The notes beneath the pieces are model-generated. The model searched no databases. It saw only the letters and a list, made by a program, of their open reading frames with translations, and was not told the DNA's origin. DNA of 44,771 nucleotides from a virus. Each line of letters starts with the position of its first letter. Positions within the stretch are counted from its first letter, which is position 1. The position numbers and the translations under genes are program-made. The stretch is taken from the UHGV virus genome UHGV-0180729; one strand, 5' to 3'. Positions 28,604 through 30,596 of this stretch are shown piece after piece.

Positions 28604-28834
28604 TTACTCATCAATGTTACTCCTGTACTCCTGTAACTTCTCCAGACTTTCAATTGCTTCCGCTAAGTCGGTTCCGGTATCCTTGTGACCGCGCAAGCCC
28701 ATGCACAATAGCTTCTTCAATGCGTGCTGTAGCGCCGGGTCCCGGATGTCGAAAGCACGGAGAACATCATAAACGTCTACTGTCATAGTGCTGCCGTGAA
28801 TGTTTGTCATTGTGCGGTTGTATTTTGAAGTCAT
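28604..28834 (-). CDS. Hypothetical protein (inverted cassette)
   Basis: 76-aa ORF, ATG 28834 with GAGGAGAG Shine-Dalgarno; ATGA overlap with upstream gene. Confidence 0.5.
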   Translation of the reverse strand: MTSKYNRTMTNIHGSTMTVDVYDVLRAFDIRDPALQHALKKLLCMGLRGHKDTGTDLAEAIESLEKLQEYRSNIDE

Positions 28835-29064
28835 AAATAGCTCTCCTCTATCAGAACGATAACTGCCGAAATAGCAACAGTACCTACGTATAAAAGACGC
28901 ATCTCGGTCGGCGCTATCGCGGTAACAGCTTCGTACAGGCCCGAGAACACGGACAAATCCATAGAGATAAAGGCCAAGACCGCCGCCATGCCTAGCACCG
29001 CGGCAGCCAAAACCAGTAAAATCACAAACGGCATTATGACTAAAATCTGCAAGGCTTTAATCAT
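28831..29064 (-). CDS. Small membrane protein with two predicted TM segments (inverted cassette)
   Basis: ILVIMPFVILLVLAAAVLGMAAVLAFI and VGTVAISAVIVLI hydrophobic segments. Confidence 0.5.
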   Translation of the reverse strand: MIKALQILVIMPFVILLVLAAAVLGMAAVLAFISMDLSVFSGLYEAVTAIAPTEMRLLYVGTVAISAVIVLIEESYL

Positions 29065-30191
29065 CCCAGCATCTCCGGTGAAATAGTTAAACGTGCGACC
29101 TCACCATATTCGGCGCTATAAGTAACTACATTTGCACTACGGCCTGACATCCACCCGCCGCGGGAGGCGTAGGCGTCTTTAGCCGCTAAGGTGCGGTGTT
29201 GCTCAACAATCATGTTACGGCTTTCTACAATCTTTTGGTGGTGTAGATGTCCGACATGCGCGTAGCTGTAAACGCTCTCGCCGAACGCTTTGCGGAACTT
29301 GGCAATCATAACCGGTTCGATAGCGTCGAATCGTGCTTTATGCCCGTGATGGAAGAACAGCGTAGTTTTGCCGTGTTGTACCATCTTGTAAACATCCGGC
29401 GACGTATCGACGAACACACGAGGCTCATTGTCGTACAGCGTACTGAACATCTCAGCTAACCAAATCATTCCGCTTTCGTCGTGGTTCCCCTGCACGATAA
29501 GTAAGCGGACATTTTTATGCTTAACCAGCGCCATATCAATAACACGGCGAACCATGCGAATCATGTAGCGGACCAGTTTCTGATAGCGCGTGTCAGCGTC
29601 AAGAACATGACCACTCGCTGGTGTAACGGCATCCAGACTATCGAAGTGAGCGAGGTCACCCAGAAGGTTAATAACTCCTGTTCCCGCATCCGGTGCTTTC
29701 TGAAACGCCGCGTCAAACCAGCGAGAGAACAGGTCTTCCGCAATCTTCATGTCCCAGTCGTCGCCACTCTCGTCAGCCCAGGCCAGCATACCGAGATGGA
29801 AATCAGATACAGTGTAAAGATTAAGTAGCTTGTCGTCTCGTTTGGTGCGGGTCGCTTTAACTGGTGCAACCGGTGTAATCTCCGACTTCATACCCTCGAT
29901 TACGGCTTTCATCAACTCGACCTGACGTTCGGCGTCAGTGTCTGTCTTAACCCATTGCAGTTTAGTGTTGCCGAACTCGTCCACAAGTGACGACGTTCCT
30001 TTAATCTTGTAGCCGTCTGGTACAAGGTGGCTGACGTCGCGCCCGTGGCCTACGCCTTTCTTAGCCAGCTTCGCTTTACGAATACGAATTACGCGGTCTG
30101 AGATGCCGTATTTACGGGCGATGTCTACATTCTTCATTCCGGCGTTCAATTCTTCCTGTAACTGCTCGTCGGTTATTTTCTTCTGGGCCAT
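29061..30191 (-). CDS. Helix-turn-helix domain fused to a calcineurin-like metallophosphoesterase
   Basis: N-terminal HTH (NVDIARKYGISDRVIRIRKAKL); metallophosphoesterase motifs SDFHLG, LLGDLAHFD, VQGNHDE, FFHHGH, HVGHLHH. Confidence 0.65.
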   Translation of the reverse strand: MAQKKITDEQLQEELNAGMKNVDIARKYGISDRVIRIRKAKLAKKGVGHGRDVSHLVPDGYKIKGTSSLVDEFGNTKLQWVKTDTDAERQVELMKAVIEGMKSEITPVAPVKATRTKRDDKLLNLYTVSDFHLGMLAWADESGDDWDMKIAEDLFSRWFDAAFQKAPDAGTGVINLLGDLAHFDSLDAVTPASGHVLDADTRYQKLVRYMIRMVRRVIDMALVKHKNVRLLIVQGNHDESGMIWLAEMFSTLYDNEPRVFVDTSPDVYKMVQHGKTTLFFHHGHKARFDAIEPVMIAKFRKAFGESVYSYAHVGHLHHQKIVESRNMIVEQHRTLAAKDAYASRGGWMSGRSANVVTYSAEYGEVARLTISPEMLG

Positions 30192-30229
30192 GCTTACTTC
30201 CTCGTGTTTAGGATTTGTCCTATAGTAGC

Positions 30230-30523
30230 TTACTTATTATCTTGAACAAACTTTTCGAACGCGTCAGCCTTTTCTTTACTATTAGGTGAGAAGCGTTTGT
30301 GATTACCATCTCTCACCCATTTAGCGTTGAACTCATCCCATAAATCTGCGTTAACTTTGATGCTCTCTTTAACTTCAGAATCTTCTGGTTTGGCGACAGC
30401 AGCCAGAATTTTATGCAAAAGCTGAATCTGTTCGTTCGCTCTTGAGGCTTTACTAATTACAATAAACAGAAACGCGGTCTGGATAGTGAGCACTACTACG
30501 GCAGCGATTAATAGCTCAAACAT
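30230..30523 (-). CDS. Small protein with N-terminal TM anchor (inverted cassette)
   Basis: MFELLIAAVVVLTIQTAFLFIVISK...; AGGAGA Shine-Dalgarno; first gene after promoter 30568-30596. Confidence 0.5.
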   Translation of the reverse strand: MFELLIAAVVVLTIQTAFLFIVISKASRANEQIQLLHKILAAVAKPEDSEVKESIKVNADLWDEFNAKWVRDGNHKRFSPNSKEKADAFEKFVQDNK

Positions 30524-30567
30524 GGTTATCTCCTATGTAAGTAAAATGTATATCTCTGATGTAGTGA

Positions 30568-30596
30568 ATAGTACCCTATTATATTGGGGTGCGCAA
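30568..30596 (-). promoter_or_regulatory. Sigma70-like promoter, family B (TTGCGC-N17-TACTAT), drives the inverted cassette
   Basis: Minus-strand reading TTACTTGCGCACcccaatataatagggTACTATTCAC, nearly identical to 8568-8596. Confidence 0.55.

Follow-up and report, generated by a model that had tools for sequence, protein, structure and literature searches.

Organization of the locus

The DNA stretch analysed here, referred to as the window, is the whole 44,771-nucleotide (nt) sequence of the virus genome UHGV-0180729, which is Kagunavirus-like and belongs to the subfamily Guernseyvirinae. The subject of the analysis is a cassette of four genes that face backward within its tail module, between the gene for the tail tube and those for the tail assembly chaperones and the tape measure protein. 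Its core gene codes for a protein of 376 amino acids (aa) in which a helix-turn-helix (HTH) is joined to a calcineurin-like metallophosphoesterase (MPE), and which belongs to the same family as gp16 of phage T1. The cassette is ordinary for the subfamily and is already annotated, although inconsistently, in hundreds of genomes. On balance, we regard a conserved, independent operon with a DNA-directed nuclease as its core as the probable explanation of the whole; the part of this explanation that concerns architecture and conservation is held with high confidence. The original prediction had described four tightly coupled genes on the opposite strand of this interval, with a promoter of their own that belongs to a family found elsewhere in the window and with a bidirectional terminator at their end, and each of these features is recovered at the expected place (Table 1).

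The coupling is evident from 4-nt ATGA overlaps at both the 376/77-aa and the 77/76-aa gene junctions, and the 376-aa gene is preceded by a 38-nt gap that includes GAGGAAG. Transcription would start at a host-type (sigma-70) promoter, whose family also includes the one heading the rightward operon of small, presumably early genes, and would proceed leftward to a hairpin which terminates the tail tube transcript as well. This hairpin, AAGGCCCC-TTTC-GGGGCCTT, consists of an 8-bp stem with 6 G-C pairs and a 4-nt loop, scores as an intrinsic terminator on both strands and carries the tails TTTTCTTACTC on the plus strand and AGTTTTATGC on the minus strand. The predicted promoter recurs twice on the plus strand, at 8568-8596 (27/29 positions) and at 10303-10331 (22/29), and these three sites make up all but one of the only four matches to a loose sigma-70 pattern in the window. 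Five Kagunavirus relatives carry it in front of their cassettes with 27-28 of the 29 positions unchanged, irrespective of the identity of the first gene. The annotation of the relative Bas76 places the copy at 8568 in a divergent control region, with leftward replication genes on one side and rightward small hypothetical genes on the other. A consensus scan additionally returns an overlapping alternative promoter, ATCACA-17-TATAAT, at 30606..30578.

Bas76 contains four copies of the promoter family, one of which (locus L019, position 5167, minus strand) heads an inverted single gene of 67 aa (4908-5111, minus strand) in the head module, unlike the window, whose own head module contains no copy. 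Because of this second inverted gene, the family is apparently a standard driver of backward-facing small genes in the structural region. Two deposited ORFs overlap the conserved promoter, namely a 109-aa 'superinfection immunity protein' of fFiEco03 (L003, 5031-5360) and the 30-aa Bas76_0024 (L002, 4494-4586), and both calls probably represent mis-called starts or spurious open reading frames (ORFs). Another backward-facing gene of the tail module, a 276-aa ORF at 33719-34549 on the minus strand, directly follows the tape measure gene of the window.

Table 1. Features of the cassette and its surroundings in the window.
Feature	Position	Strand	Basis or remarks
Slot 1 gene, 97 aa	30230-30523	-	ORF list
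Core gene, 376 aa, T1 gp16-like HTH-MPE, PHROG 704	29061-30191	-	ORF list
HTH, three helices, residues 8-44	30060..30170	-	AlphaFold2 helices 8-16, 21-28, 32-44
Beta-hairpin + helix module, residues 61-102	29886..30011	-	AlphaFold2 strands 61-70, 76-85, helix 87-102
MPE catalytic core (predicted), residues 119-376	29064..29837	-	Alignments, fold matches
Slot 2 gene, 77 aa	28831-29064	-	ORF list
Slot 3 gene, 76 aa	28604-28834	-	ORF list
Cassette promoter (predicted), sigma-70-type, TTGCGC-17 nt-TACTAT	30596..30568	-	Sequence read
Bidirectional intrinsic-terminator hairpin	28580-28599	both	Common to tail tube gene (+) and cassette (-)
Tail tube gene	27403-28575	+	Phage_tube_2, E 2e-34
Tail assembly chaperone genes	30705-31121, 31130-31483		Phage_TAC_4, Phage_TAC_18
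Tape measure gene	31476-33665		
int-alpA-like element, RF02996	30615-30681	+	Rfam, full model, 35.3 bits (gathering score 35.8)

Family and domain structure of the 376-aa protein

The 376-aa protein aligns with residues 3-375 to positions 1-389 of the 390-position profile of PHROG 704 (E 2.6e-167), a family filed under DNA, RNA and nucleotide metabolism, and is 45% identical to T1 gp16 (locus ST16) over residues 1-375 (E 4e-104). The two proteins share not only the family, but also the length (376-377 aa) and the succession of HTH, hairpin module and MPE core. Matches were obtained by tblastn in 2,055 of 50,697 phage records, of which 1,959 cover at least 80%, and the phages concerned include Drexlerviridae, Dhillonvirus and Webervirus as well as phages of Vibrio, Campylobacter, Flavobacterium and roseobacters. 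A search of 1.84 billion cluster representatives yielded 4,630 clusters (50% identity) at E ≤1e-3.

An AlphaFold2 model of the protein, with a mean predicted local distance difference test (pLDDT) value of 80, shows the three-helix HTH, a module of a beta-hairpin and a helix, and the putative catalytic core in this order (Table 1). The isolated N-terminus matches GerE with an E-value of 0.0017, below the cut-off, and there is a match to the C-terminal region of FixJ with an E-value of 0.003; precomputed hits on homologues are to HTH_1, HTH_8, HTH_50, Sigma70_r4_2 and HTH_28, and close homologues carry the NCBI name 'winged helix-turn-helix domain-containing protein'. Residue conservation was assessed in two alignments, comprising 31 diverse homologues that are 33-50% identical to the window protein, and a second set of 64 sequences. 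Residues G65, S67, W80 and K82 of the hairpin module are invariant in the latter.

All five signature motifs of the calcineurin-like MPEs are present, as motif I (D130-x-H132), II (G178-D179), III (G235-N236-H237-D238), IV (H281-H282-G283-H284) and V (G314-H315-x-H317). Residues D130, H132, G178, D179, N236, H237, H282, G314 and H317 are invariant in the 31 homologues, H281, H284, H315 and D238 nearly so, and the 64 sequences agree. The full motif set asserted in the original prediction stands up to careful alignment, and its fusion to an HTH is likewise supported. A family-specific block, G-D-x-x-H182-x-D184...T190-P191...D198-x-D200-x-R202, includes motif II; H182 and the residues D184, T190, P191, D198 and D200 of the loop 184-200 are invariant, and the pLDDT of residues 184-199 is below 50. 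The window protein itself scores 21.6 bits with PF12850 (Metallophos_2, cut-off 27) and 18.9 bits with PF00149 (Metallophos, cut-off 21.5), both cut-offs being operational rather than structural, and precomputed hits to one or the other of these families exist for some close and some distant homologues. The modelled alpha/beta sandwich matches the fold of solved MPEs, and from its motifs the protein is predicted to be a catalytically intact binuclear-metal phosphoesterase.

Among solved structures, neither the single protein nor the 64-sequence profile gave a significant hit by sequence, the profile returning no MPE from all PDB sequences at E-values up to 10, and the protein was placed by fold comparison alone. 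The resemblance to Mre11/SbcD and to the proofreading exonuclease PolD DP1 is confined to the level of the fold. There is no room for the capping domain of Mre11/SbcD, since the protein ends about 60 residues past motif V and the model assigns this remainder to strands of the core; a gene for the partner Rad50/SbcC is absent from the cassette ORFs and from the annotation of Bas76. Compared with Mre11/SbcD and PolD DP1, on the other hand, the HTH and the hairpin module are N-terminal extras. The labels under which members of the family have been deposited range from 'DNA repair exonuclease', 'metallophosphoesterase', 'DNA polymerase II small subunit' and 'phosphatase' to 'oxidoreductase' and even a cell-wall ligase.

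Conservation of the cassette among related phages

The 4.1 kb around the cassette match 459 phage records of the Guernseyvirinae type at about 80-90% identity, almost all of them from siphophages of Escherichia and Salmonella. All Kagunavirus and Jerseyvirus loci examined carry the operon at this position, including those of GZMU_E2010, Bas76, fFiEco03, fEg-Eco19, 590B, EM1, 22664BS2, SETP7, SETP13 and horsemountain and of two metagenomic contigs; in 590B the enzyme gene is present, though not annotated. The common plan begins with the promoter and the gene for a small envelope protein, followed by that of the 376-aa enzyme; small genes or homing endonucleases may come next, and the 76-aa gene or, in its place, a phosphatase/kinase gene pair precedes the terminator. 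The minimal form of this plan, as in SETP7, comprises an Imm gene, the enzyme gene and the 76-aa gene. Among the records of Salmonella phages, the 376-aa protein is represented 373 times, the 76-aa protein 371 times and the tail tube protein 359 times. The GC content is 0.398 for the 97-aa gene, 0.509 for the 376-aa gene and 0.47-0.48 for the 77- and 76-aa genes, compared to 0.502 for the window, and the ratios of non-synonymous to synonymous substitution rates (dN/dS) are 0.05-0.075 for the 97-aa gene, 0.04-0.07 for the 376-aa gene and 0.03-0.055 for the 76-aa gene.

The divergence of the enzyme broadly follows the phage groups, with identities to the window protein of 94-99% in the Kagunavirus loci examined and of 41-47% in Drexlerviridae. 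Within Jerseyvirus, two very different alleles are observed, one 88% identical to the window protein in SETP7 (L010, 2501-3631) and one 55% identical in horsemountain (L011, 2501-3655). The corresponding identities of the 76-aa gene are 75% for SETP7 and 88% for horsemountain. This different divergence of the enzyme alleles and of the flanking 76-aa gene indicates mosaic exchange inside the cassette.

In the original prediction, the cassette had been taken for an accessory or moron-type insertion without a role in the virion. Its non-structural nature is supported, as no structural or assembly family in Pfam, PHROGs or NCBIfam matched any of the four proteins. The idea of an insertion applies to part of the cassette only. 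A recently gained, dispensable and variably present block would be expected to have a promoter and a terminator of its own, and both are read here from the sequence; the direction opposite to that of the surrounding virion genes, the rarity of two of the four genes and the atypical GC content of one of them point the same way. Variable presence, however, is seen for the 97-aa and 77-aa genes, but not for the 376-aa gene, while the 76-aa gene alternates with the phosphatase/kinase pair among the relatives. Moreover, operon and position are common to Kagunavirus and Jerseyvirus, in Salmonella phages the genes of the enzyme and of the 76-aa protein match the tail tube gene in frequency, the enzyme gene has the GC content of the genome and belongs to a very large family, and its divergence broadly tracks the phage groups. 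For the core, a recent gain is thus already largely refuted, and for the four-gene block as a whole it is very improbable. Because of the shared site, the about equal record counts, the genome-like GC content and the low dN/dS values, the core of the cassette is better regarded as an ancestral feature of the subfamily, and the 97-aa and 77-aa genes alone behave as morons. The combination of a rare 97-aa gene in the slot of the immunity genes with a rare 77-aa membrane protein gene is what is specific to the window.

Proteins encoded in the variable slots

As judged from hydropathy, the 97-aa protein is anchored by a single N-terminal transmembrane (TM) segment (about residues 1-27), which is followed by a charged tail of 70 residues. 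It had no tblastn match in the 50,697 phage records, and 5.8 billion proteins yielded only 7 matching clusters, with identities of 89% or more throughout; the gene is always found in slot 1, and either version of the later slots is possible downstream of it. It is markedly AT-rich and under strong purifying selection. In the relatives, slot 1 usually contains a genuine Imm_superinfect protein (PF14373; E 1.3e-12 for that of EM1) or else a 108-aa protein whose N-terminal sequence reads as a hydrophobic, signal-peptide-like start. Imm proteins of 59-63 aa occupy the slot in EM1, 22664BS2, GZMU_E2010, fEg-Eco19, SETP7 and horsemountain, and in the Kagunavirus relatives the same promoter immediately precedes their genes. 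Slot 1 always contains a small envelope protein, usually of the Imm type, which agrees with the small membrane proteins and the superinfection module suggested in the original prediction. Both the Imm proteins and the 97-aa protein are small inner-membrane proteins, but the former are compact with two TM segments, whereas the latter combines one TM segment with the charged tail and gives no hit with the Imm_superinfect profile even at E-values up to 10.

The 97-aa protein shows some likeness to YebO of E. coli, which is listed as 'uncharacterized protein YebO' in the K-12 record, has almost the same length (95 aa) and is likewise composed of an N-terminal TM segment and a charged tail. The YebO family PF13974 is matched at an E-value of 7e-4 and 20.1 bits, under the cut-off of 27, and BLASTP against K-12 YebO aligns a juxtamembrane segment with 10/21 identities (E 2e-4), from which the common motif (K/R)AS(R/S)..NEQI.LL..L can be read. 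The likeness is limited to about 30 residues, and homology to YebO appears plausible on these alignments. A weak ZorA-like PADLOC hit to the TM segment was judged compositional. A role of the 97-aa protein in exclusion at the membrane level or in modulating the host would be a reasonable guess.

The 77-aa protein contains two or three TM segments by hydropathy, consistent with the two segments proposed originally. Only 8 phage records match it, including Jerseyvirus SETP13 with 40% identity, and because of this distant homologue it should be regarded as a real family; the conserved core is ISMDLSVF..Y....(I/L).......R(L/I)LYVG. The gene is missing from Bas76, SETP7 and EM1, and with 2 synonymous and 9 non-synonymous differences among close relatives, strong purifying selection is not evident. 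HNH homing endonuclease genes are found within the cassettes of some relatives, and slot 2 may be seen as an optional position, filled either by a small multi-TM protein or by a homing endonuclease.

Hydropathy reveals no TM segment in the 76-aa protein, which is soluble, as had been proposed, and probably helical. It represents PHROG 2452 (E 2.7e-36) with matches in 774 phage records, and no Pfam family was hit at E-values up to 0.1; a fold resembling that of DUF3310 might be suspected. The domain also occurs in fusions, namely as the C-terminal part of a 255-aa 'ATPase' of an Acinetobacter phage and as the N-terminal parts of a 204-aa 'phosphodiesterase' of an Alteromonas phage and of a 405-aa BRCT-containing protein of an Aeromonas phage. 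In EM1, 22664BS2 and the metagenomic loci L021 and L022, the gene is replaced by those for a HAD phosphatase and a deoxynucleoside monophosphate (dNMP) kinase. Slot 3 is thus occupied by either the PHROG 2452 protein, as in the window, or a PNKP-type 3'-phosphatase with a dNMP kinase. A constant linkage of the 76-aa gene to the enzyme gene was considered and rejected, since the homologues in JK06 have distant gene numbers (JK_43P versus JK_62-64P) and the 76-aa gene is replaced in several Kagunaviruses.

Genomic context of the enzyme in other phages

The position of T1 gp16 differs from that of the window protein. In T1, Webervirus and Badaguanvirus, the enzyme gene lies between a helicase/VRR-NUC/Dam block and the lysis genes, and in Drexlerviridae at the end of this block; in Dhillonvirus it is directly upstream of the terminase genes, and in a Vibrio phage among lysis and head genes. 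An inverted orientation inside the tail module is only found in Guernseyvirinae.

In the Kagunaviruses EM1 and 22664BS2 and in the metagenomic loci, the MPE gene is translationally coupled to those for the PNKP-type HAD phosphatase and the P-loop dNMP kinase. The same coupled trio recurs independently in Webervirus GH-K3, and its three members have diverged to a similar degree, with identities between the two lineages of 42% for the MPE, 60% for the phosphatase and 44% for the kinase. The phosphatase (162 aa) matches the PNKP-type HAD 3'-phosphatase family PF25109 (E 1e-20) and lacks a kinase domain; its deposited name is 'polynucleotide kinase'. For the kinase, the EM1 record gives dNMP kinase (phrog_139). 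The pair of phosphatase and kinase genes is located at 3628-4670 of the EM1 locus (L014), at 5460-6499 of L021 and at 5160-6226 of the GH-K3 locus (L005), and is also present in L015. In T1 (L029, 4948-6534), the pair lies in the early left arm and is split by an HNH endonuclease gene.

Possible function of the enzyme

From the features described above, the 376-aa protein may be a DNA-directed phosphodiesterase, i.e., a nuclease, with the HTH bringing the active site to the DNA; we consider the chance that it acts on DNA in this way to fall just short of even. It would then act early on the host DNA, leading to breakdown of the chromosome, shut-off of the host and supply of nucleotides for salvage, although the host chromosome can only be named as a tentative target, and it is less likely that the enzyme works on DNA ends in the DNA metabolism of the phage. 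Where the partner genes are present, nuclease, end or nucleotide phosphatase and dNMP kinase would together provide a plausible salvage route. Several indirect lines of evidence point to a nuclease, in that a conserved HTH and an extra module are fused to an intact core, that the gene is coupled to those for a PNKP-type 3'-phosphatase and a dNMP kinase in two lineages, and that it has an early-type promoter and a neighbour of the superinfection-immunity type, with the replication set located elsewhere. This set, consisting of polymerase, helicase-primase, an exonuclease with an annealing protein, and a resolvase, is encoded at other sites as judged from the annotation of Bas76, so that the MPE has no obvious place in the replication machinery. 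Of the functions offered in the original prediction, a DNA-targeted phosphoesterase or nuclease thus appears to fit best, and specific support for a signalling phosphatase was not obtained.

Two other phage MPE lineages do such a job and are used here as analogies. A1 of T5 (PHROG 1745), a predicted metallophosphatase for which loss of the nucleoid is reported and which serves as the functional model for a nuclease directed at host DNA, is also encoded together with a small membrane protein and a DNA-binding protein, in the gene order A2 (DNA-binding), T5.005 (two TM segments) and A1. Unlike the window enzyme, A1 has 556 aa and no fused HTH. The second is gp48 of mycobacteriophage A10ZJ24, an early MPE with all five motifs that acts as phosphodiesterase and DNase, damages the host genome and aids the phage in evading defences (PMC12287305). 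In this protein and Bxb1 gp47, which measure about 255 aa, motif I is N-terminal and the HTH of the window enzyme is lacking. Homology to either lineage was examined and rejected. For T5 A1, hhalign returned a probability of 15% over 23 columns around motif III, and A1 itself hits PHROG 1745 only; for gp48 and Bxb1 gp47, the probability was 5% over 18 columns, and Bxb1 gp47 hits PHROG 221 and PHROG 20266 only. The DNA-binding protein A2 of T5 was likewise rejected as a relative of the HTH, being unrelated.

A number of observations weigh against a host-directed nuclease. The T5 and mycobacteriophage enzymes are analogies only, because they lack a profile-level relationship to the window protein and belong to different PHROGs (1745 and 221 compared to 704). 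The HTH scores under the Pfam thresholds in the window protein and is missing from some distant homologues. Neither the phosphatase nor the dNMP kinase was detected by tblastn anywhere in the window, and in T1 the pair lies far from gp16, so that the linkage of the three enzymes is not universal. Both the activity of the cassette promoter and its timing are deduced from sequence. A published time course of the Kagunavirus K1B4 speaks for a separate transcription unit, in that the Imm gene beside the chaperone gene shares an expression class with methylase and DNA polymerase genes that differs from the largest class (42 of the 57 classified genes), but it is coarse, and its text gives only the class of this neighbouring Imm gene (PMC12645636). 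In the literature on Kagunavirus, Drexlerviridae, T1-like phages, anti-defence MPEs, escaper mutants and the degradation of host DNA by T1, experiments on any member of PHROG 704 were not found, and work on m6dAMP-sensing defence systems and on daunorubicin proved to have no bearing on the family. Kagunaviruses are not known to degrade host DNA.

Three other functions have to be weighed against a nuclease. The best Foldseek matches in the PDB are the cyclic nucleoside monophosphate phosphodiesterase Rv0805 and GpdQ, which would suit a counter-defence enzyme degrading cyclic (oligo)nucleotide alarm signals, or one remodelling nucleotide pools, as would the HAD phosphatase and dNMP kinase genes next to it in several phages, the early-type promoter and the adjacent immunity-type genes. 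However, the fold scores of nucleases are equally high, no PADLOC or anti-defence family was hit by the enzyme, and a conserved HTH with a hairpin module is hard to explain for an enzyme acting on small molecules. The gene is also a near-universal, slowly evolving core gene in several groups of virulent phages, unlike the patchily distributed anti-defence genes, and we consider such a phosphodiesterase unlikely. The coupled trio in two phage lineages can also be read in terms of end healing, with the MPE removing 2',3'-cyclic or 3'-phosphates from RNA or DNA ends and the PNKP-type phosphatase and the P-loop kinase assisting in the repair of cuts set by anticodon nucleases or other defence nucleases; the healing enzymes of the bacterial Pnkp type indeed use a calcineurin-type phosphoesterase module. 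But such a pathway would lack a ligase, which is neither encoded in the cassette nor annotated in Bas76, the kinase is annotated as a dNMP kinase rather than a polynucleotide kinase, and in the window and most relatives the enzyme occurs without either partner, which makes end healing quite improbable.

It would be equally improbable that the protein mainly serves as a DNA-binding regulator or a protein-protein scaffold, e.g., as a transcription or replication factor, with catalysis being secondary. Examples of such uses of the fold are known, since the phosphoesterase gp47 of Bxb1 doubles as a recombination directionality factor and the B-subunits of eukaryotic polymerases are catalytically dead. 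In PHROG 704, however, the metal ligands and the catalytic histidine are invariant or nearly so across thousands of clusters, which argues for retained catalysis, and the HTH is the least conserved part, missing in some homologues. Returning to the nuclease, a more far-reaching proposal can be formulated, which we offer with considerable doubt. The T1 gp16-like enzymes may constitute a third independent MPE lineage, after those of T5 A1 and of the gp48 type, that virulent phages use to destroy the host chromosome, and would then be the so far unassigned host-DNA and salvage nuclease of the T1-, Dhillon-, Jersey- and Kaguna-like siphophages, operating in some lineages as a three-step module with the PNKP-type 3'-phosphatase and the dNMP kinase. 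The promoter-proximal slot would in this proposal be a hot spot for the exchange of exclusion proteins, including a mimic of YebO.

Implications

Among phage gene families without an assigned function, that of the enzyme ranks with the more widespread ones; its members occur in T1 and also in many phages that were isolated for therapeutic use on E. coli, Salmonella and Klebsiella. The labels deposited for it are inconsistent and given without evidence, and a concrete role can now be proposed. If the enzyme were a nuclease for host DNA, this would bear on the takeover of the host and on defence systems that sense the breakdown of the chromosome. In that case, going by the analogy of T1 mutants reportedly described in the older literature, the risk that therapeutic phages cause generalized transduction could be affected too. 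The variable slot 1 represents a ready place to seek new superinfection-exclusion proteins. For the window itself, the result is mostly clarifying, with only the 97-aa gene being unusual.

An int-alpA-like element upstream of the chaperone gene

In Kagunavirus and Jerseyvirus, no other non-coding stretch of the locus is as well conserved as one in the 181-nt gap from the cassette promoter to the chaperone gene. The match to RF02996 found there (Table 1) has an E-value of 5.6e-5 on 2.5 kb and of 0.001 on the whole window. In 11 Guernseyvirinae sequences of the element, 98.8% of the cells pair and four pairs change on both sides, compared to 0-1 in slid controls, and compensatory changes occur in all three helices. 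Since the element lies upstream of the -35 region of the minus-strand promoter, it would either be transcribed only as a leader of the chaperone and tape measure operon or act as DNA.

An exact-pattern scan for the core of the motif (CTAG...CGAAAAGCGG...CCGCCTGG) returned 75 viral contigs, mostly of 10-19 kb (IMG/VR loci L031-L105), as exemplified by the site at 8722-8763 on the minus strand of L034. A distance of about 1-57 nt separates the motif from the next candidate ORF start downstream in nearly all of these contigs. The integrase-bearing contigs examined show the order integrase, motif, variable gene (e.g., DUF6387) and AlpA/HTH_17, followed in L034 by an antirepressor. Three of the 75 contigs are of the Guernseyvirinae type, and in these the motif is located about 40 nt before the chaperone gene. 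It may be speculated that, through a leader common to the phage tail operon and satellite-like elements, the latter could monitor the gene expression of their helper.

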